In this document: in pieces, positions 43,013 through 63,983 of the stretch | Layout: each line of letters begins with the position of its first letter | Position numbering within the stretch: the first letter of the stretch is position 1 | Source of the DNA: Myxococcota bacterium | GTDB lineage: Bacteria; Myxococcota_A; UBA796; UBA2385 | NCBI GenBank assembly: GCA_044344255.1 | Contig: JBIJDH010000014.1 | Coordinates: forward strand, 140,313-204,312 | Reading direction: 5' to 3' | DNA: 64,000 bases | Made by a program: the position numbers and the translations under genes | The notes under the pieces: generated by a model | Seen by the model: the letters and a program-made list of their open reading frames with translations, nothing else | What the model was told of the DNA's origin: nothing | Databases searched by the model: none

Positions 43013-44215
43013 GTGGCCGCCTCTGCGGCCTGCCGCGGGGAAGGAGAGGACTGGGCGCCGGTGCAGGCGCAGATCCGGGCCGCCGACCCCGAAAGACGCT
43101 TCGAGGAGGGGATCCACAGCCGAACTCTGGGGCGCCTCGATCGGGAGGAGCGCTGCGAGACCTGCCACGCCGCCACGCTCCCCGGCCTCACCTCGCTCGG
43201 GCCGCTGGGCACGCACCCCGAGGGCGCCCACCTCCTCGGCGCGCACGACCCCGCCCTCTTCGGCTGCGTCACCTGCCACGGCGGCGACGGGGAGGCCCTC
43301 CGCTCGGAGCTCGCCCACCGGAGCGAGGCGGAGCGCCCCTTCCGCGCGCGCCCGGAGGCGGCATGTTTCGGCTGTCACCCCGCAGGCGTGGCGGGCGCGC
43401 CCACCCTCACCCTCGGCCTCGAGACCCTCCGCGCGCGGGGCTGCGCCGCCTGTCACGACTGGGAGGGCGCCCCCGCGGGCCCTCGGGCCGGACCGCTCAC
43501 GCGCCTCGCCGCCGCGACCGGCAACCACCCCGAGCGGATGACCGACTGGCTCCTGCTCTCGCACCGCCCCGGCCTCGGGCTGCGCGCCGAGCCCCTCCAT
43601 GACCTCGTCACCTGGCTGCGCTTCGTCTCTGACGCCGTCGAGCTCCCGACCGCCCCGCACGGCGACGAGGCCCGCGGCGCTGCGCTGCTCGCCCCCTGCT
43701 TCGACTGCCACGGCGAGGGCGCGAGCGCCGTCGAGGGGCTCGGCCAGCGCCTCGATCGGGACTGGCTCTACGCCTTCCTCCAGGCCCCCGCCGCCACCCT
43801 GCCCGGCAGCCACCACCCGGCCACGCCGAGCCCCGCGGACGCCGCCGACCTCGTCGCCGCGCTCACCCACGCCCCCGCCGAGCGCGACCTCCAAGACGTC
43901 GACATCGCCGCCGCCGGCCGCGGGGCCTCGCTGGCCCGAAAGCAGGCCTGCGGCGCCTGCCACGCCCTCCCGGTCGAGCTCCCCCTCCCGCCGCGTCCGG
44001 CCGGCTTCCCGCCGCGCACCGGGAGCGCCCATGGCTGGGGGGCCGAGCCCCTCCCCGACCAGCTCTGGTTCCCCCTCTCCGTCGCCGAGGCCGAGGCCCT
44101 CGACCTCACCCTCGAGGCCATCCGCCAGCCCCCACCCGAGGCCGCCCGCCTCCGGCCCGGCGCCCCCCCCGATGAAGGTTGGGGATCCACCGTGCGGCGC
44201 TGGCTCGGGGGCTGA
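43013..44215 (+). CDS. multiheme c-type cytochrome (6 CxxCH), probable lipoprotein
   Basis: CETCH, CVTCH, CFGCH, CAACH, CFDCH, CGACH; SAAC lipobox; true start is probably upstream of 43013. Confidence 0.85.
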   Translation: MAASAACRGEGEDWAPVQAQIRAADPERRFEEGIHSRTLGRLDREERCETCHAATLPGLTSLGPLGTHPEGAHLLGAHDPALFGCVTCHGGDGEALRSELAHRSEAERPFRARPEAACFGCHPAGVAGAPTLTLGLETLRARGCAACHDWEGAPAGPRAGPLTRLAAATGNHPERMTDWLLLSHRPGLGLRAEPLHDLVTWLRFVSDAVELPTAPHGDEARGAALLAPCFDCHGEGASAVEGLGQRLDRDWLYAFLQAPAATLPGSHHPATPSPADAADLVAALTHAPAERDLQDVDIAAAGRGASLARKQACGACHALPVELPLPPRPAGFPPRTGSAHGWGAEPLPDQLWFPLSVAEAEALDLTLEAIRQPPPEAARLRPGAPPDEGWGSTVRRWLGG

Positions 44216-45809: not shown

Positions 45810-46958
45810 ATGCGCCTGATGATCGTGGGACTGAGCGACAATGCCGTGCGCGCGCTGCGCGAGACCCTCGGCACGCTCGTGAGCGACGCCGGCGCCATCC
45901 GCGATCCGGGCCAGCTCGAGGCCGTGATGGGCGGCACCCGCCCTGAGGTCGTGGCGATCTACCTGGGTATGCGCCCGGGCCAGACACTCCAGACCATCCG
46001 CAGGGTCAAGGCGCTCTTCCCCGCCACCGCCTACATCGCGATCGTCGACGAGACGGGCCCCACCCTCATCCAGTCCGCCACGGAGGCCGGCTGCGCCGAC
46101 ATCGTCCTCCTGCAGCGCCTCCCCTCTGACCTCAAGCGCTCCCTCTCGCTGCTCATCCAGCGCGACCGGCCGAGCGACGCCGACGGCGAGATCACCGCCA
46201 TCCTCGGCGCCAAAGGGGGGATGGGCACCACCACGGTGGCGATCAACCTCGCCGCCGAGATCGCCGCCCGCACACAGCAGCGCGTGATCCTCGTCGACCT
46301 GCACGTCTACCTGGGCAACGTCGCGGTGATGCTCGACATCGTCCCCAAGCCCACCGTGCTCTGGTTCCTCCACCACGGCTCGATGGCCGACGCCCGCACC
46401 TGGGCGGACGCCCCGCCCACACACAAGGCCGGCTTCCGCGTGCTCGGCCTCGACGGCGACGTCGCCACCGCCGACCCCATCACCGCCGAGCAGGTGGTCT
46501 TCCTCTGCGCCCGGCTGAAGGAGCGCTACGAGCACGTCGTGCTCGACTGCGGCGCCGAGTTCAACGAGGTCACCCTCGCCGCCTGCTCCGCGGCCAACCG
46601 CCGTGTGATGGTCACCACCGACGAGCGCACCGCCCTCGTCGGGGCCATCCGCCGCCGGGACGCCCTCAAGGCGCTCGAGCTCGGCCCCACCCCGGCCCGC
46701 CTCGTCATCAACCGGGCCCAGGCCATGAGCCCCGAAGAGTGCCAGAAGCTCGCCGATCAGATCGGCCTGCCCTTGGCTGGGATCGTCTCCAACGCCTGGC
46801 AGGACACCCAGGCCGCCCTCGATCAGGGCACCGTGCTCCGCATCGCCGCCCCCCGCGCCCAGGTCACGCGAGACGTGAAGGCGCTGGTGGACGGCATCTC
46901 GGGCACGCTTCAGGAGGAGGAGCGCAGGAAGCGCACCTTCTTCACGTTCTTCCGTTGA
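45810..46958 (+). CDS. CpaE/TadZ-like protein (receiver-like domain + MinD/ParA-type ATPase)
   Basis: GAKGGMGTTTVAINLA, VILVDL, HVVLDCG, LVINR; N-terminal pseudo-receiver; amphipathic C-terminal FFTFFR. Confidence 0.85.
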   Translation: MRLMIVGLSDNAVRALRETLGTLVSDAGAIRDPGQLEAVMGGTRPEVVAIYLGMRPGQTLQTIRRVKALFPATAYIAIVDETGPTLIQSATEAGCADIVLLQRLPSDLKRSLSLLIQRDRPSDADGEITAILGAKGGMGTTTVAINLAAEIAARTQQRVILVDLHVYLGNVAVMLDIVPKPTVLWFLHHGSMADARTWADAPPTHKAGFRVLGLDGDVATADPITAEQVVFLCARLKERYEHVVLDCGAEFNEVTLAACSAANRRVMVTTDERTALVGAIRRRDALKALELGPTPARLVINRAQAMSPEECQKLADQIGLPLAGIVSNAWQDTQAALDQGTVLRIAAPRAQVTRDVKALVDGISGTLQEEERRKRTFFTFFR

Positions 46959-51269: not shown

Positions 51270-54257
51270 TCAGTCCACCTGATAGGAGACGACCACCGCC
51301 CGGTGGTCACTCGGCCAAGGGTCGGCGTCATAGACATAGGCATCGAGCGGGGTCAAGTGGAGCGCGCCGTCTCGACCATACACAAAGTCAATCCGGTCGT
51401 GCACGTCGTCCGCCTCGAAGCTGCCCTTGGGGTAGCCGGCGGTCCAGGTGAGGCCCCGATCGAGGGTGGGGTCGGGGTGGACCGCCCGATAAGCGTCCAC
51501 GAAGCCGCCCTCGGCGAAGGCGACCGAGCTCGGCCAGGCCACGACGAGATCAAAGTTCTGATCGGCGTTGTCGGCGGTCCAGTCGAGGTGGGAGGGGGCG
51601 TTGTGGTCGCCGAGCACGATCGCCGTGTCGAGGCCCTCGAGCAGGCCGAGCACCGCCGCGGCGTCGTCCCCGCGCACCCGCCCCTCGGTGTGCTCGATCT
51701 CCTCCACCGAGGCGCCGTCCCGCGCGAGGTAGGGCCCGTACTCGGTGTAGTCGAAGTGGGTGCCCACCACGGTGATGTCACCCCGATCGGGCAGGGAGAG
51801 GGTGGCGAGGAGGGAGTAGCCCCCCGGGTCGCCCACGGCGCCCGACAGCGGGAAGCGGGACAGCAGGACGTTGTCGGAGCCGTCGTCCACCGTCATCGCC
51901 CCGGCCCAGGCCGGGGAGAGGGCCACGACGGCGGCGAGCAGCTCGGCGGCGAAGGCTGGGCCGCCCTCCTGGAGGGCGACGAGGTCAGGGTCGCAGGCCA
52001 CGATGGCCGCCGCGATCTTGTCGACCCCGCCCGGCACCGCGCTGCCGTCCAGCCAGGAATTGAAGGTCATCACGGTGAGGTCGCCGACCGCCGCCGGCGG
52101 GACGCGCTCGCCGGGATCGGTCACCCGAAAGGGGGCTCGGGCCATCACCTCGTACCCATCGGCGAAGAAGAGGCGGGCCTCCCAGTCCCCTGCTGGCAAC
52201 CCCACGGGCAGGAAGCGGAGCCGGCCGCCGACAGGGCCGCCCTCTCCTGCCGACTGACTGCCGTTCGTATAGAGCCAGGCGGCGCTGCCCTGGTTCTCGG
52301 TCTGGTCGGCTGGATAGAGCCCCACCCAGTCCGTGGCGGCGCCGCTGGCCCCGGCGAAGGCCACCATCAGCCGCTCGCCCACCTCGTACTCCGCCTGGTC
52401 GGTGGAGAGGTTGGGCCCCGCCTCGCCGCTGTCCTGCGGGGCCGTGTCTCCGCCGCCCCCGTCGCCCCCGCCGCCGTCGATGCCCGGCCCATGGCCCTGC
52501 CGCTTGACGCCGGGGTCTGCCGCGCCGCAGCCCACCAAGAGGGAGAGGGACAGCAGGCCGATAGAGGGGCGACGGCGGCGACCGAGGGCGAGCAGCGCCG
52601 AGAGGGCGAGCCCGAGCGAGGAGCCGATCGGGGCGACCTGACAGCCCCCCTTGCCGGTGTCGGCCAGGGAGACGGCCGCGCCGGGGGGCTCTCCGTCTCG
52701 CGGGCCCTCCAAGCCTCCGCCCTCGCCGGCGGCGTCGGTGTCGAGGCCGCCTCCGTCGCCGCCGTCGGTCGCCCCGTCGGCGCCGCCGTCCGTCGCCCCG
52801 TCGCTCCCGCCGTCGGTCCCGCCGCCGTCGGACTCCTCCGCCTCGACCTGCACCGTGAGGGTGAGGAAGCCGTCCGCCGGCCCGCCTCCCCAGGGGATGT
52901 CAGCGAACCAGGTGACCCCGTCTTCGACCAGCGCCAGGGGAAGGCTGAGCTCCCCCACCTCTCCGCCGCGCACGGTGAAGGTGAAGGCCCCGGTCTCCCC
53001 CGGGGCGACGTCTGCGGCGGGGTGGGCGACGCGGGTGGTCGACACCCAGGTCTCGTTCGCCAGCGGAGAGGCGGCGTCCCGGGGCCAGGGGGCGAGCGAA
53101 GTATTGCTGGTCCAGGTCTCGGTGCCGTCATTCCGGAGGTCTACAGACAGGCTGACCTCCTCGCCCGGGTGCAGCAGGACGGGCACGCCCTCCGAGAAGC
53201 TCGCCGAGACCACGGAGGCCTGAAAGGGGGCCCCGGTCTCTCGGAGCTCGTCCAGGCGCGCATAGACGAGGTCACCCGGACAGGCGGTGGAATTCCCAGG
53301 CCAGTCCCGGTGGCCCTTCATCGTGTCGTCGTCGGTGACAAAGCTGTGCTCAGCGGCCAGGGTCTGGATGAGGAGGCGCGCGCTGACGATCATCGTGTCG
53401 GGCGGCGTGTCATACGAGCTGCCGCAGCCGCCGGAGTCAAAGCAGCCGAGGAAGCAGACGGCGATGTTGCCGTCGTTGTTTCCGCCGCCGGTAGCCCCCG
53501 ACTGGTACGTGAGCTCCCTCCCCTCCCACAGGCTGCCGTCGTAGCCGACGAGGTACTGATAGGGGATGTCGCAGTAGTCGCTGCCCATCGCGTAGGCCTG
53601 CAGCGCCTGGACGGCCCCCTCCACGGTGCCGCCGTAGGTCTCTCCCCCGGCGGTGTGGTGGATGGCCATCCGGTACCAGTCGTCCTCGGTGGTGCTGCAG
53701 GTGGTGCTGTCGGCCCCCCAGTCATCGCGCGAGGTGACGCCGATGGCCTCCATGCTGGGGCTGAGCGCGCTCGACGGCGGGGGCGGCGGGGCGCCGGGCA
53801 GCAGGCGGGGCTCACCGACGGGGTGCAGGAGCTCCCAGGAGAGGGCCTCGACCGCCCCCGCGCCCCGCACCCGCACCTGGGCGGCGAAGGCCTCGCCGTC
53901 GAGCTCGGCGCTGTAGACCCGGGCCTCCTCCCCCACCCAGAGCTCGGCGGCGGGGATCCAAGGCCCGAGGGCCCCGCCCTGCTCCACCCGCACCTCGACC
54001 ACGAGGCCGACGGTGGGCTCGATCTCGACGAGGGCGAGGAAGCGGGTGCCGCCCTCGGAGAACGCGCGCAGCCCGGACAGACCGACCGGCCCCCGCCAGG
54101 CCCAGCCCTGGGCGAGCGCGGCGCGGTCCTCCCGGAGCTCGGGGAGGACGTGGAGCGGGTCATCGAGCTCGAGCGCGGACGCCTCCCGGGCCGACAGGGG
54201 GCCGAAGGGCGACAGGACCGACAGGACGAGGAGGGGCGCGAGGGCAGAGAAGAGCAT
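51270..54257 (-). CDS. multidomain protein: type-2 (PGRP-like) amidase + Ig-like + internal MYXO-CTERM + lipoprotein signal + Ig-like + EEP nuclease/phosphatase
   Basis: AIHHTAG, DIPYQYLV..DGSLWEGR, GHRD..TACPG; MTFN, VALQE, LGDHN, DRIDFV, SDH. Confidence 0.85.
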   Translation of the reverse strand: MLFSALAPLLVLSVLSPFGPLSAREASALELDDPLHVLPELREDRAALAQGWAWRGPVGLSGLRAFSEGGTRFLALVEIEPTVGLVVEVRVEQGGALGPWIPAAELWVGEEARVYSAELDGEAFAAQVRVRGAGAVEALSWELLHPVGEPRLLPGAPPPPPSSALSPSMEAIGVTSRDDWGADSTTCSTTEDDWYRMAIHHTAGGETYGGTVEGAVQALQAYAMGSDYCDIPYQYLVGYDGSLWEGRELTYQSGATGGGNNDGNIAVCFLGCFDSGGCGSSYDTPPDTMIVSARLLIQTLAAEHSFVTDDDTMKGHRDWPGNSTACPGDLVYARLDELRETGAPFQASVVSASFSEGVPVLLHPGEEVSLSVDLRNDGTETWTSNTSLAPWPRDAASPLANETWVSTTRVAHPAADVAPGETGAFTFTVRGGEVGELSLPLALVEDGVTWFADIPWGGGPADGFLTLTVQVEAEESDGGGTDGGSDGATDGGADGATDGGDGGGLDTDAAGEGGGLEGPRDGEPPGAAVSLADTGKGGCQVAPIGSSLGLALSALLALGRRRRPSIGLLSLSLLVGCGAADPGVKRQGHGPGIDGGGGDGGGGDTAPQDSGEAGPNLSTDQAEYEVGERLMVAFAGASGAATDWVGLYPADQTENQGSAAWLYTNGSQSAGEGGPVGGRLRFLPVGLPAGDWEARLFFADGYEVMARAPFRVTDPGERVPPAAVGDLTVMTFNSWLDGSAVPGGVDKIAAAIVACDPDLVALQEGGPAFAAELLAAVVALSPAWAGAMTVDDGSDNVLLSRFPLSGAVGDPGGYSLLATLSLPDRGDITVVGTHFDYTEYGPYLARDGASVEEIEHTEGRVRGDDAAAVLGLLEGLDTAIVLGDHNAPSHLDWTADNADQNFDLVVAWPSSVAFAEGGFVDAYRAVHPDPTLDRGLTWTAGYPKGSFEADDVHDRIDFVYGRDGALHLTPLDAYVYDADPWPSDHRAVVVSYQVD

Positions 54258-54265
54258 GCCCGAGT

Positions 54266-54721
54266 CTACACGCGGAGAGGGTCCGCGGCCCGCGCGGTGG
54301 CCTGGCCGAGATCGGTCGCCACCGGGCTCCAGAGGCCGAGCAGCAGGGGCCCCACGCCCAAGAGCGCGAGCTTGTGGGCCTCTCCGACGACCACGAGCTG
54401 CCGCACACCGCCGAGCTTGACCGCCTCCGCGCGGAGCTGCGCCGCCGCGACCAGCTCCTGGGCGACGGCCGCGAGGGCCTCGGCGGAGGGGCCCTCCCCC
54501 GCGGCGGCGACCGGCAGCCCGTCGATGGCCGCGAAGGCGACGCCGACGCCCGGCCGCGCCGCGAGCTCGCCTACGAGCACGGTCACCGCCTCGATGAAGG
54601 CCTCCGGGCGCCGCCCGCTCGCCCGATCGGCCCGGTGGAGGGACTCGAGCGCCGCTACGCGGTCGGCGAGCCAGTGGGGGGAGCCGCCCACCGCGGCAGG
54701 GTCGCCCACCTCATCCGCCAA
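54266..54721 (-). CDS. roadblock/LC7-domain protein
   Basis: GVGVAFAAIDGLPVAA...ALAAVA...LGGVRQLVVVG pattern. Confidence 0.7.
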   Translation of the reverse strand: MADEVGDPAAVGGSPHWLADRVAALESLHRADRASGRRPEAFIEAVTVLVGELAARPGVGVAFAAIDGLPVAAAGEGPSAEALAAVAQELVAAAQLRAEAVKLGGVRQLVVVGEAHKLALLGVGPLLLGLWSPVATDLGQATARAADPLRV

Positions 54722-55100
54722 AGACGAGGTCGAGCTCGGGGATCGTCTCGCGGACCTCGTAGCGGACCGCGCCGAGCATGGCCGTGCTGTCGGCCACCAC
54801 CACCAGCACGAAGCCCCGCACTAGGGGGGCGAGGAGGATGAGCCCGTCCTTGTTCTCGGAGAGCACGAGCTTGGTGCTGCCCTGACCGACCTGCCCGGCG
54901 GCCTTCGCGGCGGCGGTGAACACGATCTGCACCGCGGCGCCCAGCGCGTCGGTGTCCACCTCGAAGTCCCGGCGGATGTGGGTCACGAAGCCGTCGGCGT
55001 CGACCACCGCGGCGGTGGTCACCCCGCGGAGGGAGACGAGGCTCTGCAGGGACTGATCGATGCGCTGGTTGCGCTCGGACTTGGACAGGGGTGCGCTCAT
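54711..55100 (-). CDS. roadblock/LC7 (MglB-like) protein
   Basis: GVTTAAVVDADGF, ALGAA, LVLSENKDGLILLAPL, LVVVAD..MLGAVRYE; GGAGG RBS. Confidence 0.88.
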   Translation of the reverse strand: MSAPLSKSERNQRIDQSLQSLVSLRGVTTAAVVDADGFVTHIRRDFEVDTDALGAAVQIVFTAAAKAAGQVGQGSTKLVLSENKDGLILLAPLVRGFVLVVVADSTAMLGAVRYEVRETIPELDLVFGG

Positions 55101-55173
55101 GGAGCCTCCAAAGGGCAGAATTCAAGGGGTTACAGGGCGTGAGGGACGGCGTACTCCACGCGGGACAGGCGGG

Positions 55174-55998
55174 TCACTCGGCACATCGCAGCTCCACGCG
55201 CCGGTTCAGCTTGCGATGGGCGACCGAGTCATTGGCGACGAGCGGCTCTCGGGCGCCCGCGCTGCGCAGGCGGAGCTCGGTCCGCGACCGCCCCTGCTCG
55301 ACCAGCTGAACCGCGACGGCCTCCGCCCTCGCCAGCCCCACCCGCTCGTTGGTGGCGGCGCTGCCGAGGTCGCAGGTGTGCCCCACCACCTCGATCACCG
55401 CGCACCGGCTCCAGCCCGGGGGCAGGGACAGGGAGTCTACGAAGGCCGCGCCGAAGGCGAAGCCGACCGCGAGCGGCTCAACGGGCAGCGGCTCAGCGGG
55501 CAGCGGCGCGGCCTCGGCGGGCGGCGCGGCCTCGGCGGGCGGCGCGGCCTCGGCGGGCGGCGCGGCGACCGGCGTCAGGCCGACCGCGGCCGCGGACGAG
55601 GGGACCTCCGGCGAAGGACCGCGCAGCAGCACGACGATGAGGCAGAGGGCGACGATCGACAGGGCGACGATCGCGCCGATCGCCCAGCCCCGGCCCCCGC
55701 CGGTCACCGCTGCGGCGGGCAGCGCCGAGGCGGGCGGGAGCGCCGGCACCGCGGGGGCGGGGATCGGCCGCGGCGGCGGCGGGGTCAGCCACCCCTCGTC
55801 GAGGAGGTCCTCCTCTGGCACATCCAACCCCGATCGCGACGGCGCTCGGCGCGCCACGAGCGGCTCATCGACGCTCACCTTGACGGGGACGATGACCACC
55901 GGAAGACCGCGCAGCGGCGCCTCCGCGGCCCCGCGTCGGACCGAGCGAGGGCCCAGCAGGCCGTCCAAACCATCCCAGTCGAGCTCGCGAGGCCTCAT
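55174..55998 (-). CDS. single-TM protein with C-terminal OmpA/MotB-type peptidoglycan-binding domain
   Basis: TM IGAIVALSIVALCLIVVLL; VVGHTCDLG...NERVGLARAEAV...NRRVE; ATGA-coupled to the kinase. Confidence 0.85.
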   Translation of the reverse strand: MRPRELDWDGLDGLLGPRSVRRGAAEAPLRGLPVVIVPVKVSVDEPLVARRAPSRSGLDVPEEDLLDEGWLTPPPPRPIPAPAVPALPPASALPAAAVTGGGRGWAIGAIVALSIVALCLIVVLLRGPSPEVPSSAAAVGLTPVAAPPAEAAPPAEAAPPAEAAPLPAEPLPVEPLAVGFAFGAAFVDSLSLPPGWSRCAVIEVVGHTCDLGSAATNERVGLARAEAVAVQLVEQGRSRTELRLRSAGAREPLVANDSVAHRKLNRRVELRCAE

Positions 55999-57701
55999 GG
56001 GGCCACCAATGACGACGCGACGCGAAAGCCGAGGTACTGATACCGCTTCGTGACCTGCATCTCCGTCCGTGGGATCTGCCCCGGTCGGGTGCAGGGGTGC
56101 CGATAGGAGCCGCCGAGGGCGACGCCGTGCCCGCTCTCCAGGGACAGGGCGCCAGACCCCGCCTCCACCCACTCCCAGACGTTCCCGAGCAGGTCGGCGA
56201 CCCCGTCGGGGGTGGAGCCGGCCGCGTGGGCGTCGACCGAGGCCGGCCCGTCCGCGCCGACGACCGAGCACTGGCAAGTCTTCCCCTCTCCACAGGCCTC
56301 CCCCCACGGGTAGGAGCGGCCCTCGGCCCCCCGCACCGCGGAGGTCCACTCCGCCTCTGTCGGCAGGCGGAGCCCCGACCAGCGGGCGTACTGGCGCGCC
56401 TCCTCCAAGGACACCCCCACCACCGGGTGTCGCGCGCGGCCAACGGGCGGCTTCCGGCCTCGCCAGTGTTCGGGGGGCGCGACCTCGGTGGCCGACACGT
56501 AGCGCTCGTACTCCGCCTCCGTGACGGGGTGTGCGGCGAGGGCATAGGCCTCCACGGCGCACTCTCGCTGGCCCACCCACACCTTCGCAGGCGGAACCAC
56601 GACCATCCCGGTCGGCGGGGGTGCGAAGCGCGGCGGCGGCGGCGGCGGCGGCGGCGGCAGCGGCAGCGGCGACGACGGCAGCGGCGGCCCGCCGCTCGGC
56701 TCCTCCAGGTGAATGGCCGAGAAGAACATCTCCGTCTCGCTCTCCGGCATCGCCAGCTCACCCCCGCTGCGGAGGTCGACCAGGCACACCCGGAGCGCGT
56801 CCCGCATCGCGCGGGCGTCCGCGTAGCGGTCATCGGGCGACTTGGACATCGCCTTGCGGAGCACCCGGTCCACCGAGGCCGGGATGAGCTCGGCGACGGG
56901 CATCGTCCGCGACAGGTGACCGATGACCGCGCCCGTCCGATGGGAGCCGAAGGGCTCCCGGCCCGCGCTCACCGTGTAGAGGGTACAGGCGAGGCAATAC
57001 AGATCGGATCGGCCATCCGAGGGCTCGCCGCGGAGGCGCTCGGGGCTCATGTAGATGGGCGTCCCCGGCACCGCCCCGCGGAGCCCAGCCCCACCGGCGA
57101 GGCCCGAGATGCCGAAGTCACAGACCTTCGCCCGCCCGCTCCGCTCGATCAGCACGTTGCCCGGCTTGATGTCGTTGTGAATGACCCCTTGGTCATGGGC
57201 GACCGCGAGGCCCTCGAGGCAGTCGATCCCGATCTCCAGCACGAGCTCGACCGGCAGCCGCTTGTCGGGGTGGGCGGCCCGCACGCGGGAGAGGTCGAGG
57301 CCGTCCACGAGCTCCATCACGAGGTACTCCCAGCGCCCCTCCCGCCCGTAGTGGTGGACCCGCACGATGTTCGGGTGGGAGAGGAGCATCGAGGTGCGCG
57401 CCTCCACCCGCAGGGTGGCGTCGACGCCCGCCTCCGCCTGGGCCGCCGCGAGGCCGTTCGGCAGCATCACCTTGATCGCCACCGGCACGTCGAGGACGCT
57501 GTCCCAGCCCCGATAGACCGCCGCCGCCGCTCCGCCGGCGATGCGCTTCTCGAGCCCGTACCGACCACCGAGGACAGACCCCTCCTTGGGCGGCCCCGCG
57601 GGCTCGGGCTCGGTGACCTCCACCGGCGACGCAGGGCCCAGGCCCAGCAGCCTGCGCAGCTGACCGATCGCGCCGCCGAAGGTTGAGTCTGACATCGCCA
57701 C
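55995..57701 (-). CDS. Ser/Thr kinase fused to FGE-sulfatase (SUMF1) domain
   Basis: VAIK, HNDIKPGN, DFG, GTPIYMSPE; poly-Pro linker; HPVVGVS, RLPTEAEW, DLLGNVWEW, GFR. Confidence 0.92.
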   Translation of the reverse strand: MAMSDSTFGGAIGQLRRLLGLGPASPVEVTEPEPAGPPKEGSVLGGRYGLEKRIAGGAAAAVYRGWDSVLDVPVAIKVMLPNGLAAAQAEAGVDATLRVEARTSMLLSHPNIVRVHHYGREGRWEYLVMELVDGLDLSRVRAAHPDKRLPVELVLEIGIDCLEGLAVAHDQGVIHNDIKPGNVLIERSGRAKVCDFGISGLAGGAGLRGAVPGTPIYMSPERLRGEPSDGRSDLYCLACTLYTVSAGREPFGSHRTGAVIGHLSRTMPVAELIPASVDRVLRKAMSKSPDDRYADARAMRDALRVCLVDLRSGGELAMPESETEMFFSAIHLEEPSGGPPLPSSPLPLPPPPPPPPPRFAPPPTGMVVVPPAKVWVGQRECAVEAYALAAHPVTEAEYERYVSATEVAPPEHWRGRKPPVGRARHPVVGVSLEEARQYARWSGLRLPTEAEWTSAVRGAEGRSYPWGEACGEGKTCQCSVVGADGPASVDAHAAGSTPDGVADLLGNVWEWVEAGSGALSLESGHGVALGGSYRHPCTRPGQIPRTEMQVTKRYQYLGFRVASSLVAP

Positions 57702-57940
57702 TCCTCCCAGCGTTCACTGCAACCACCGTGCCGGGTCAGGGTCCGGGAATTCGGCGCCGCCGGGTTCCCGACACGGCTCCGGCCGACGCGCGGCGCTGTG
57801 CGGAATCCCACAGCGGCGGGTGTACGGGGGCGCCCCATCGGCCCGAGAAGGCCACCCCTGGGGTTCCCCTTCCGGTTGGCGCAGTCCTTGCACAGCGTCC
57901 CGCGTGCGCGAGGCCAGACCGCCTCCCCGCCGGAGCCCCG

Positions 57941-58309
57941 ATGAACAGCGCCGCCCTCTTCTCACTCCTTCGACTGGAGATCCCCGGCTACGCGGGGACC
58001 GTCTTCGGGAACATCGACGGGACCAGCCTCTACACCGATGGCTACCCCGGCGAAGAGGGGGCGGCGGTCGGCCGGGCCCTCGCCGGCCTCGCCCGCGGCC
58101 ACCATGCCCTCTATCAGGAGCTCGGGGGCGCGATGGACTTCGGCAGCAACGACGAGGTGCTGGTCACCGCCTCGCGCGGCTTCCTCCTGCTCCGTCTCCA
58201 CCACGAGCGCAAGCGCTTCATCGGCGTGCAGCTCCACGCGAGCGGCAACATCGGCTACCTCCGCTTCCGGATGCGGGAGTACCTCCGCATGGTCCTGGAG
58301 GGCGCATGA
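57941..58309 (+). CDS. roadblock-like small protein
   Basis: LEIPGYAGTVFGNIDG...DEVLVT...FLLLRL...GNIGYLRFRM; GGAG RBS. Confidence 0.7.
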   Translation: MNSAALFSLLRLEIPGYAGTVFGNIDGTSLYTDGYPGEEGAAVGRALAGLARGHHALYQELGGAMDFGSNDEVLVTASRGFLLLRLHHERKRFIGVQLHASGNIGYLRFRMREYLRMVLEGA

Positions 58310-59127
58310 ACCGCATCCCCGACATCGCCGCCGCGCCGATTGACTTCAGCTGCCCCGTCGAGCTCTACGACGACCCCGGCCACCGCCTGTTCTGGGTCGG
58401 CTCCCAGGAGGACTCCCCCTTCCGATGTAACGCCTACCTGCTCGTGGATGGGGACACCCACGTGCTCTTTGACCCGGGCTCCCAATTCCACCACTACGAC
58501 CAGGTGCGGGAGCGGGTCGGTCGGATCGTGCCGCCCGACTCGATCACCCACATCGTCGTGCACCACCAGGACCCTGACCTCTGCGACTCGCTGCCCGCCT
58601 GGATCGAGGAGAACCCGAACGTCGTGCTCGTCTGCACCCCGCGGACCCGCATCTTGCTGCCCTACTACGGCTTCCGCCGCGACGTGGCCTGGCTCGACAT
58701 CTCTCCGGTCGACAACACCGTCCTCGAGCTCCCGAGCGGCAAGGCCCTCGCCTTCATCACGAGCCCCTTCCTCCACTTCCCCGAGGCCTGCGTCACCTTT
58801 GACGAGGCGAGCGGCTTCCTCTTGTCGAGCGACATCGGCGCGGCGATCGAGGACGACTGGCAGCTCATCGTGAGCGACTGGGAGGCCCACTGGCGCACCA
58901 TGGTGCCCTTCCACGTCTTCTACATGGCCTCCAACCGGGCGATGCGCGGCTTCCTCGACAAGATCGACCCCTTCCCCATCAGCGCCATCCTCCCGCAGCA
59001 CGGCTCGGTCATCCCCGGGCCCTTCGTGCGCGAGGCGCTGAAGCGGCTGCGCGAACTGCCCTGTGGGATTGACCTGCTCTATCCCCAGAGCAACATCGAG
59101 GCGGCGATGGGGTCGATGCGGCGCTGA
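58306..59127 (+). CDS. MBL-fold oxygen-binding di-iron protein (ODP-like)
   Basis: FRCNAYLL, LFDPG, HHQDPDLC, FLHFP, SSDIG, LPQHG; no flavodoxin domain; ATGA-coupled. Confidence 0.85.
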   Translation: MNRIPDIAAAPIDFSCPVELYDDPGHRLFWVGSQEDSPFRCNAYLLVDGDTHVLFDPGSQFHHYDQVRERVGRIVPPDSITHIVVHHQDPDLCDSLPAWIEENPNVVLVCTPRTRILLPYYGFRRDVAWLDISPVDNTVLELPSGKALAFITSPFLHFPEACVTFDEASGFLLSSDIGAAIEDDWQLIVSDWEAHWRTMVPFHVFYMASNRAMRGFLDKIDPFPISAILPQHGSVIPGPFVREALKRLRELPCGIDLLYPQSNIEAAMGSMRR

Positions 59128-62583: not shown

Positions 62584-62799
62584 GTGGCCGGTCCGCTTCA
62601 AATCTACCTCCTCTCCGATCCCACAGACGAGGCCTTTGTGGCGGCCGTCGCGGAGGGGCTCCGTGCACAGAGCTGGCGCGTCTTCCACCGGGCTGACCTG
62701 CTCCCCGGCGACGAAATCAGGGTCGCCGAGGAGAAGGCGCGGACGCGGGCTTTACGGCCCGGCCGGATTCCGTCGGGCGTGACGATGTGGCCAAGGTAG
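62584..62799 (+). pseudogene. truncated TIR-like ORF fragment
   Basis: GGAG + GTG start; IYLLS..DEAFVAAVAEGLRAQSWRVF...LLPGD resembles the start of a TIR domain, then stops at 71 aa. Confidence 0.4.
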
Positions 62800-62863
62800 G
62801 GCACCGGCCCGCGGGTGGGGAGAGGCTCCGCCCCAGCTCCGGGCGGCCGCGGCCCCACGTGAT

Positions 62864-63273
62864 TCGGCCGGCAAAGATCCTCCTCCCGCGCCACGCGGGG
62901 GAGGAGGCGCCGCATCGACTCCGAAGGGGGGCTGCAGCCCACAGAGACTCGGCCGGCAAAGTCCCTCCTCCCGCGCCAAGCGGGGGAGGAGGCGCCGCAT
63001 CGGCGCCGGAGGGGGGCTGCAGCCCACAGAGACACAGTCGGAACGAATCCTCCTCCCGCGCCACGCGGGAGAGGAGGCGCCGCATCGGCGCCGGAGGGGG
63101 GCTGCAGTCCACAGAGACACAGTCGGAACGAATCCTCCTCCCGCGCCACGCGGGAGAGGAGGCGCCGCATCGGCGCCGAAAGGGGGCTGCAGCCCACAGA
63201 GACTCGGCCGGCAAAGATCCTCCTCCCGCGCCACGCGGGGGGAGGTGGCGCCGCATCGGCGCCGGAGGGGGGC
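62864..63273. repeat. tandem array of five ~85-bp REP-like double-hairpin units
   Basis: units at 62864, 62949, 63034, 63119, 63204 (last partial); each has CCTCCCGCG-CCA-CGCGGG..GAGG and GGCGCCG-CAT-CGGCGCC hairpins (some with mismatches). Confidence 0.95.
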
Positions 63274-63285
63274 CCGCATCCCCTC

Positions 63286-63666
63286 CTACACTCCCTCATC
63301 CTCACGCGACCTGTCCCCACCGACCGTAAGCGCCTCCAAGATCGCCTGCAGCGTAGCTTCTGGCTGTCCCGAGACCTCATGGTTCCAAAAGCGGATCACC
63401 CGAATGCCGCGCTCTCCCAACCATCGGGTTCGCGCCTCGTCCTTCCCCGCGTCGTCGATGTGACCACTCCCGTCCACCTCAACGGCCAATCGAGCCCTCA
63501 CGCAATAGAAGTCGAGGATGAATGGACCCACAGGATGCTGGCGCCGGAAGTTGAACCCCCCGAGTCGGCTGCCGCGAAGGTGCTGCCACAGCCAGAGCTC
63601 TGGCTCCGTGGCCTCGTGGCGCATCGCTCTGGCTCTGGCGGTTGAGATAGAGTCTTGGCGGGCCAT
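63286..63666 (-). CDS. DUF559 endonuclease-domain protein (Vsr-like PD-(D/E)xK)
   Basis: ARAMRHEATEPELWLWQHLR, FRRQHPVGPFILDFYC..RLAVEVDGSGH, D..RT.WL..RGIRVIRFWN. Confidence 0.93.
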   Translation of the reverse strand: MARQDSISTARARAMRHEATEPELWLWQHLRGSRLGGFNFRRQHPVGPFILDFYCVRARLAVEVDGSGHIDDAGKDEARTRWLGERGIRVIRFWNHEVSGQPEATLQAILEALTVGGDRSREDEGV

Positions 63667-63701
63667 GATGAGCGGCCTATCTCGGCGTGCTCGCAACTGT
63701 A

Positions 63702-63983
63702 AAGGGTCCCTTCGATGACTGGCCCCCCTCCGGCGCCGTTGCGGCGCCACCTCCCCCCGCGCGGCGCGGGAGGAGGATCAGGAGAGCGACCCGAGTGTGG
63801 ATCGGCGATGGACCTCTCGGGCGGACGCGGCCTGTCGCGGGATGGGCACCACGAGGATCAGGAGAGCGACCCGAGTGTGGATCGGCGATGGACCTCTCGG
63901 GCGGACGCGGCCTGTCGCGGGATGGGCACCACGATGAAGGGTCCCTCCGATGACTGGCCCCCCTCCGGCGCCGTTGCGGCGCC
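63702..63983. repeat. right-hand repeat complex: inverted REP-like unit, 80-bp tandem duplication, second partial unit
   Basis: 63722-63779 is the reverse complement of 63216-63273 (2 mismatches); 63773-63852 = 63853-63932; 63702-63748 recurs at 63937-63983. Confidence 0.93.

Follow-up and report, generated by a model that had tools for sequence, protein, structure and literature searches.

A conserved roadblock module with an oxygen-binding di-iron protein and no GTPase in Myxococcota, apparently undescribed

Nearly all that is understood of roadblock proteins in bacteria concerns their partnership with MglA-type GTPases. What do three of them do at a locus that encodes no such GTPase? The locus in question lies at positions 54266–59127 of the window, a stretch of 64,000 nucleotides (contig JBIJDH010000014.1) from a Myxococcota bacterium whose genome, G000, is 8.2 Mb long and 95% complete. 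It is composed of six genes, encoding a kinase-FGE fusion, a membrane anchor with an OmpA-like domain, three roadblock proteins (1 to 3), and an oxygen-binding di-iron protein (ODP). The six genes very probably form one functional module, and its regulation by low oxygen is likely, judging from its promoters. The complete reading is of a hypoxia-induced, GTPase-free roadblock scaffold that is tethered to the envelope and read by a plug-in O2/Fe sensor; this whole chain is given a probability of about 0.5. The locus is real, conserved, and built from known parts, and is apparently undescribed.

All six open reading frames (ORFs) are present where the initial annotation of the window placed them, in two units that diverge from a gap of 245 bp. 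On the minus strand, the kinase-FGE fusion (55995–57695; Pkinase 120.6 bits, FGE-sulfatase 103.6 bits) is followed by the single-pass inner-membrane anchor (55174–55998; OmpA Pfam 36.6 bits), by roadblock 1 (54711–55100; Robl_LC7 44.5 bits), which is the marker of the family, and by roadblock 2 (54266–54721; Robl_LC7 26.9 bits, cut-off 23). On the plus strand, the MglC-like roadblock 3 (57941–58309) precedes the ODP (58306–59127; 273 aa; PF19583, 185 bits, cut-off 27.2). ATGA overlaps can be read in the sequence at 55995–55998, between kinase-FGE and anchor, and at 58306–58309, between roadblock 3 and the ODP. The gene order, the gap (first put at ~240 bp), and both couplings of the initial annotation are thus confirmed. 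Hidden Markov model searches matched the families it had named (Robl_LC7, ODP, FGE-sulfatase, and OmpA), except that roadblock 3 has no Pfam match. As it had also stated, no GTPase or chemoreceptor gene is present among the six ORFs.

The first step is whether the six genes belong together. Order-wide counts cover 154 genomes in seven families. Roadblock 1 orthologues occur in 12 of them, and the ODP subfamily of the window in 11, all within those 12; none of the 142 genomes without roadblock 1 encodes it. The only roadblock 1 carrier of the order without this ODP is G457, which is 72% complete. Five of the 11 ODP-bearing genomes were outside the ODP alignment. Carriers are patchily distributed over four of the seven families. 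The core, with the near-constant order FGE, membrane anchor, roadblock 1, and roadblock 2, was recovered in 18 GTDB genomes including G000, and on eight metagenome contigs, of which three duplicate loci from these genomes. All six genes stand in one stretch in G000, G003, G015, G025, G173, and G306, and the halves of the module are on separate short contigs in G043, G411, G455, G456, and G481. In G015, the six genes are collinear on one strand; the divergent layout is therefore not required. The expected co-occurrence of homologues in other genomes is borne out by these counts.

The sensor of the module varies between loci. In 11 genomes, the gene immediately before this ODP is roadblock 3, which belongs to a small family, and the two form a linked sensor cassette. 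V4R genes sit within the core or immediately after it in G224, G190, G425, G455, G456, and G457, and in G427 the core is followed by a PAS protein. V4R proteins replace or join the ODP across loci. A core with an AAA_22-FGE fusion is also present at L094:1-3666, in a record titled Methylococcales, and a similar metagenome contig is L102:951-2915; if the binning is right, this suggests that the core ranges beyond Myxococcota.

By its sequence, the MBL protein of the window is a genuine member of the ODP family. The motifs HQDPD, FLH, SD, and PQHG are all present. Residues H87, Q88, D89, D91, H157, D176, Q231, and H232 of the metal site, the full set of di-iron ligands, are invariant in seven of seven orthologues and align to 6QRQ. 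The best PDB matches are 6QNM and 6QRQ (E 4e-36 and 5e-33), the two ODPs with solved structures. The MBL fold stands alone, without a flavodoxin domain, and at the C-terminus the subfamily has a conserved extension, YPxxNxExA. The third His of motif 2 is absent and a Gln precedes the His of motif 5, a feature described as an ODP hallmark (PMC7785958). The assignment to the ODP family made by the initial annotation therefore holds, and the reversible O2 binding, as a di-iron peroxo species, that defines the family is predicted for this protein. ODPs described so far are coupled to signal transducers (PMC7319448, PMC7666581). Those of Treponema denticola and Thermotoga maritima share with the window protein the MBL fold, the metal-site residues, and genetic coupling to a signalling partner. 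Their partner is a sensor-less chemoreceptor, whereas the window ODP is partnered with a roadblock protein and an envelope scaffold, and its subfamily differs from theirs by the C-terminal extension.

A second ODP lineage, with 28–30% identity to that of the window, is present at L080:5267-9987 (G011) and L086:4125-8889 (G010). There, the ODP operon also encodes MglA, DUF4388, roadblock, HhH-type, and HU-like proteins. The presence of this different lineage in MglA-roadblock operons suggests repeated recruitment of ODPs to roadblock systems.

All three small proteins are roadblock folds, as first proposed: roadblocks 1 and 2 exceed the Robl_LC7 cut-off, and roadblocks 2 and 3 are placed by structure comparison. 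Roadblock 1 is the most conserved gene of the module, with 49–79% identity among 14 orthologues. Its profile retrieves at least 120 clusters (90% identity) at E <1e-53, these being the best 120 of 336 listed, and a search through 8000 candidates turned up no longer, fused form, though this is weak evidence. Against the MglB equivalog NF052242 it scores 17.3 bits, far under the cut-off of 200, and so falls outside MglB.

Roadblock 2 was one of the two doubtful folds (the ORF at 54266). Its model (pLDDT 91) matches MglB, LAMTOR, and Asgard roadblocks with Z up to 12.5 (root-mean-square deviation 2.0 over 104 residues against solved roadblocks). To the roadblock fold, the protein adds an HWL helix at its N-terminus and a short helix at its C-terminus. 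A circular permutation was considered and found no support, as the structural alignments span residues 34–141 in normal order and do not take in the added N-terminal helix. In most homologues, the protein starts at the HWL motif or slightly ahead of it, so translation more likely starts at GTG 54709 or 54691 than at TTG 54721. Profile comparison with roadblock 1 gives a moderate probability of 53%.

Roadblock 3, the other doubtful fold (the ORF at 57941), has an Atlas model with pTM 0.87 and a TM score of 0.80 to a Robl_LC7 cluster, a comparison of predicted with predicted models. Its profile finds MglC weakly (E 0.026); in this match, the Gly and Asp of the β1-β2 turn and the GNxG of helix 3 align, and the FDI motif of MglC (PMC7949163) is not kept. 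Comparison with the roadblock 1 profile gave no significant similarity (probability 2%). The distant matches of roadblock 3 are REC-DUF4388-roadblock proteins, and no ODP fusion was found among 27 representatives. Elsewhere in the phylum, other roadblock operons (L077-L079, L081-L084) pair roadblocks with V4R-like proteins, protoglobin, or MglA. The combination of a roadblock with a small-ligand sensor looks like a recurring theme.

Could the GTPase be encoded elsewhere? The initial annotation proposed that the module may feed the MglA polarity system in trans, with its roadblocks as GTPase-activating proteins or adaptors. The case for this would be that some MglA-like match exists in 8 of the 12 module genomes of the order, that G000 encodes PilB above cut-off and GltG/GltJ-like genes below it, and that the second ODP lineage adjoins MglA and roadblocks in G010 and G011. 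However, no MglA-type GTPase was found in G000 with Pfam Arf, a seven-sequence MglA profile, and a motif scan, nor was MglA found in G003, G015, G173 (99% complete), or G426. MglA-like matches are about as frequent without the module (95 of 142 other genomes of the order) as with it, so no association exists between the two. The proposed link to MglA was not borne out, and this reading is highly improbable.

Robl_LC7 matches in G000 number two, both at this locus, and profile searches of all its reading frames gave no further roadblock of substance. Nine module genomes together have 18 Robl_LC7 matches, of which 17 belong to the module itself. A G-motif scan of G000, which is not exhaustive, returned 14 ORFs, all of housekeeping types as read. 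No chemoreceptor (methyl-accepting chemotaxis protein, MCP) was found in G000 either. G000 presents an observation of its own: motility genes are present, yet no MglA or MCP, the usual polarity switch, was found.

The absence of a GTPase also separates the module from its nearest known relatives. MglA-MglB-MglC-RomR of Myxococcus xanthus likewise has several roadblock paralogues, with roadblock 3 weakly resembling MglC; the module has no MglA that could be found and adds a membrane anchor, an FGE protein, and an O2 sensor of its own. Actinobacterial conservons (CvnA-D, mfp) combine a membrane sensor and a roadblock in a conserved operon (PMC4316618). A conservon has a histidine kinase, one roadblock, and a GTPase, whereas the module has two to three roadblocks, no GTPase, a Ser/Thr kinase-FGE protein, and an OmpA anchor. 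Assignment to an MglA/MglB module or a conservon was rejected, as no MglA-family GTPase was found in locus or genome.

The intergenic region gives the condition under which the module is probably expressed. Each unit is faced by a sigma-54-type promoter: that of the kinase-FGE operon (57718–57733, minus strand) keeps 11 of 12 consensus positions, and that of roadblock 3 and the ODP (57877–57892, plus strand) 10 of 12. Midway between them is a 16-bp palindrome of the TGTG-N8-CACA type (57797–57812), the putative enhancer of an NtrC-type activator. Aligned intergenic regions (n = 8) show GG-N10-GC boxes. When scored against the sigma-54 consensus, sites of at least 10/12 face roadblock 3 and the ODP at eight of ten loci, and sites of at least 11/12 face the FGE gene at six of ten, a seventh (G025) being on the edge of the region. 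By comparison, shuffled sequences reach 9/12 in 5–12% of cases, and the genome background for at least 10/12 is 0.006 per 250 bp and strand. A scan of the 245-bp gap for sigma-70 promoters and terminators found nothing. No RNA run contained more than 0.05 of the words; the three short, nearly identical pieces of contig (depth 2) that fall on roadblock 3 and the FGE domain do not show transcription.

The same signature is observed at respiration genes. Five divergent sigma-54 pairs are present in G000: that of the window, nap/nos, Usp/cbb3, a hemerythrin-radical SAM gene, and one without a visible O2 link. A matrix built from five module palindromes matched three of six held-out module loci. 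A matrix from seven module sites of other genomes only ranks the window's site first in G000, where 10 of 375 sigma-54 sites score at least 14, against 0.57 expected from shuffled upstream regions. These ten use seven distinct palindromes. The eight outside the module face ccoN (cbb3), nirK (copper nitrite reductase), a NapA-like/NrfD operon, a clade II nosZ operon, a dimethyl sulfoxide reductase type II operon, PFOR, an SQR-like flavoprotein, and a Usp gene ~950 bp away. The next-ranked target is a CRP-family gene that adjoins a protoglobin-PAS kinase and an NtrC-type regulator on contig C52. Elsewhere in G000, the regulon was noted at C54 67027-67180, C29 169305-169422, C29 162183, C71 9737, C58 32368, C36 7312, and C52 479858.

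An independent test comes from ccoN, found in 15 of 18 genomes searched, with enough upstream sequence in 14 other than G000. A sigma-54 box precedes it in 13 of these 14 relatives and the palindrome in 11 of 14 (0.23 expected). The protoglobin kinase occurs in 93 of 154 order genomes and adjoins ccoN in several, and in G003 a cluster of Usp, protoglobin kinase, sigma-54 regulator, CRP, and CBS genes lies directly beside the ODP. Because the palindrome is common to cbb3 oxidase, nirK, nap, nosZ, and PFOR promoters, the module is placed in a low-oxygen regulon.

This regulon resembles that of NmpRSTU in M. xanthus, which has a protoglobin kinase, an NtrC-type regulator, and sigma-54 promoters, and whose targets include cbb3 oxidase, Usp, a CBS protein, and a single-domain hemerythrin (PMC11841059). 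It differs in its site, 16-bp TGTG-N8-CACA rather than the published GCGCA-N5-TGCGC (PMC11841059), and in its targets, which add denitrification genes, PFOR, and the roadblock-ODP module. Near-matches to the NmpR site in the gap only overlap a sigma-54 box or lie downstream, and do not qualify as an NmpR enhancer. The word 'roadblock' is not in the main text of the NmpR regulon paper (PMC11841059).

A shared enhancer admits another explanation, in which the genes are co-regulated and no signalling chain exists. The ODP would then be a hypoxic O2 scavenger, O2 carrier, or iron store, with roadblock 3 as its chaperone, and the core would share only the enhancer. The common palindrome alone could hold two unrelated operons together; G224, G190, G425, G426, G427, and G457 have the core without the ODP; and the NmpR regulon includes the single-domain hemerythrin (PMC11841059). 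This explanation is nevertheless unlikely. No genome was found to have this ODP subfamily but not the core (0 of 142), and G015 has roadblock 3 and the ODP inside the core operon without such a promoter. A roadblock partner beside a roadblock operon is also hard to explain by chance, and the coupling of described ODPs to transducers argues for signalling. With the promoter signature of low-oxygen respiration genes and without a GTPase switch, the module looks like an O2-responsive signalling scaffold. This reading preserves part of the O2/Fe-sensing module of the initial annotation: co-occurrence and promoter evidence uphold one conserved, O2-related module with a genuine ODP, and the link to MglA falls away.

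The FGE protein offers clues to what such a scaffold would carry. The window kinase (aa 48–292) has the Hanks-type motifs VAIK, an HND catalytic loop (non-RD), and DFG. A Pro-rich linker joins it to a compact FGE-fold domain (aa 377–560), and no transmembrane segment is present. The FGE domain is the conserved part of the fusion and the kinase part is exchangeable. Recognisable kinase motifs are found at most loci; G438 has a truncated kinase, G043 a degenerate one, and G025 and G411 none, and its place before the FGE domain is taken by Zn_ribbon_4 in G224 and by AAA_22 in G426. The Zn-ribbon of GltJ binds the roadblock MglB (PMC11135422). The initial annotation had the module signal through roadblock heterodimers, which are putative, and Ser/Thr phosphorylation. 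The kinase-FGE protein it relied on is present, and the phosphorylation route is weakened because the kinase is missing, degenerate, or replaced where the other parts stay.

The FGE domain itself is one of 48 FGE-sulfatase domains in G000. Its fold is that of FGE, with the paralogue SUMF2 as the best match in both sequence and fold. Homologues read GGS[FY]xHxC and lack a Cys pair at the spacing of catalytic FGE, where the copper-binding pair after GGS is C336/C341 in the human enzyme; a catalytic FGE system was rejected for want of this pair. Being compact, cytoplasmic, without the catalytic Cys pair, and closest to SUMF2, the domain is read as a candidate adaptor. Cys113, His172, Cys174, and Cys198 (numbering of alignment A6) are conserved within it (window 55998–56612) and might form a metal or redox site, in a region of the model with low confidence.

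The exchange of effectors bears on a further alternative, in which the scaffold is real and its roadblocks are a GAP-like or allosteric platform for another NTPase or the kinase itself. The result would be a stress or envelope-remodelling switch unconnected to motility. Non-RD kinases need allosteric rather than loop-phosphorylation activation, as the window kinase would, and an AAA_22 ATPase occupies the place of the kinase on the G426 FGE protein. The roadblock superfamily is also predicted to regulate NTPases (PMC4316618). However, the FGE domain is bare in G025 and G411, leaving no enzyme to regulate, and the NTPase motif scan, not an exhaustive one, gave only the housekeeping GTPases. This platform is a quite unlikely account of the module.

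The domain vocabulary recalls type VI secretion, in whose post-translational pathway TagR is an FGE protein, PpkA a kinase, and TagL an OmpA protein. By analogy, the module could be a control unit of a secretion or conflict machine, and the G043 locus is near baseplate/tail-like genes. G000 has no VipB/TssC that could be found, and the FGE domain is cytoplasmic, without signal or transmembrane segment. No conserved secretion neighbour exists, and the promoters group with respiration genes. A type VI Tag pathway was rejected on the missing VipB sheath protein and the missing transmembrane segment of the FGE protein, and a role of this kind is very unlikely. The locus is thus not an MglA/MglB module, conservon, catalytic FGE system, or type VI Tag pathway, each having failed on a defining feature.

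The anchor would hold these parts together. From N- to C-terminus it is made up of a linear motif, a transmembrane helix, a Pro/Ala linker, and an OmpA-like domain. The motif, LDxD[GA]LDG (55960–55983, minus strand), occurs once across all six frames of G000. It is present at 19 of 22 loci, and the other three loci begin inside the anchor gene. The transmembrane helix of the window (predicted at 55624–55680, minus strand) has a mean hydropathy of 3.2 over 19 aa. A hydrophobic helix follows the motif at 17 of the 19 loci; L138 has a frame break and L155 stops at the locus end. Wherever the anchor frame is intact, the motif is followed by the helix and the OmpA domain. This order would place the motif in the cytoplasm, as a putative docking site. 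The motif is repeated in some homologues (five copies in G306, three in G224, and two in G457), which suggests that the site is used in multiples. A complex prediction of the FGE domain, roadblocks 1 and 2, and a 36-aa anchor peptide scored 0.02 against a mark of 0.32, with controls that were unfolded, and weighs on neither side of the binding question.

The usual peptidoglycan-binding motif of OmpA is GHTD, whose Asp/Arg pair binds diaminopimelic acid (DAP). The OmpA-like domain of the window reads GHTC and keeps the Arg. The Asp is a Cys in the window and most homologues, and is kept in L093, L096, L076, L101, and L135.

These parts can be arranged into a mechanism. As O2 falls, a protoglobin kinase and an NtrC-type regulator (NmpU/NmpR-like, contig C52) would switch the module on. 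The OmpA-like domain would hold the anchor at the wall, with LDxD[GA]LDG exposed in the cytoplasm. There, the anchor would bring a dimer of roadblocks 1 and 2 together with the FGE protein in a scaffold fixed to the envelope, comparable to the tethering of roadblock dimers by LAMTOR1 in Ragulator. The ODP would report its Fe(II)/O2 occupancy via roadblock 3, which would bind the other roadblocks in the way that MglC docks on MglB. The signal would then gate the variable effector domain of the FGE protein, a kinase here and a Zn-ribbon or AAA domain elsewhere. The output, the weakest step, would most likely be to control a machine of the envelope or of surface motility locally, where oxic and anoxic zones meet, as a chemoreceptor-free substitute for aerotaxis. 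Steering of surface motility or envelope assembly at such interfaces is a guess, since G000 has PilB and GltG/GltJ-like genes and no MCP, MglA, or VipB that could be found.

The precedents for these steps are eukaryotic as well as bacterial. MglC binds MglB (PMC7949163). LAMTOR1 holds roadblock dimers at the membrane, and a roadblock that lacks the last helix borrows one from its partner (PMC10933270). In Ragulator and TRAPP, roadblock dimers are likewise tethered to a membrane by an extended peptide, and V4R, present at six module loci, is a relative of TRAPPC3 (PMC10933270). Ragulator and TRAPP serve Rag or Rab GTPases, so the likeness is analogy only. In these terms, the module resembles an ODP-coupled sensor path in its working and a tethered roadblock scaffold in its construction. 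That it founds a new class, a Ragulator-like GTPase-free scaffold pinned to the wall by a linear motif, with swappable sensors and effectors that turn O2 into a spatial envelope or motility response, is a tentative proposal and more doubtful than the chain itself.

Several observations weigh against the chain. Related genomes are non-independent samples. G190 has the anchor, V4R, and roadblock 1 with no match to FGE or roadblock 2, G438 keeps the ODP without roadblock 3 at the locus, and the second ODP copy of G306 adjoins a molybdoenzyme. Most homologues have Cys or Ser in place of the OmpA Asp, and their hold on the wall may therefore be weak. Neither the promoter pair nor the palindrome is present at L072, L146, G015, and the V4R-type loci tested, so low-oxygen control does not extend to all loci. 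Because the palindrome is unlike the NmpR site that has been published, the regulator is assigned by gene context only. Finally, no conserved output gene adjoining the module was found.

Other features of the window lie outside the module. A 995-aa ORF at 51270–54257 combines Amidase_2, Ig-like, and exo/endonuclease-phosphatase domains with a weak MYXO-CTERM segment; it may be two genes run together, and is not beside the module in the relatives examined. At 45810–46958, a receiver-like domain and a ParA/MinD (CpaE-like) ATPase are encoded upstream of an lpxA-like gene. A multiheme cytochrome c with paired CXXCH motifs (43013–44215) is upstream of a glutamate-cysteine ligase gene. Imperfect tandem repeats of ~70–75 bp each (62604–63380) adjoin a DUF559 endonuclease-like gene (63286–63750).

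A description of the six-gene set was not found in the literature, in a search that had most subscription journals and the founding ODP paper outside its range. Within the literature searched, the initial annotation was right not to recognise a described system. A 2014 survey lists 328 orphan MglB homologues, none characterised (PMC4316618). The locus provides a concrete GTPase-free context for roadblock proteins, with a docking motif and an inducing condition that can both be tested. The ODP family gains a new type of transducer and the non-catalytic FGE domain a candidate adaptor role, and a sigma-54 low-oxygen regulon box common across this order has been uncovered. If the scaffold model is true, the module would be a bacterial parallel to the membrane-tethered roadblock complexes of eukaryotes. 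If the new-class reading is true, it would give Myxococcota that lack chemoreceptors and MglA a route from O2 to a spatial response.

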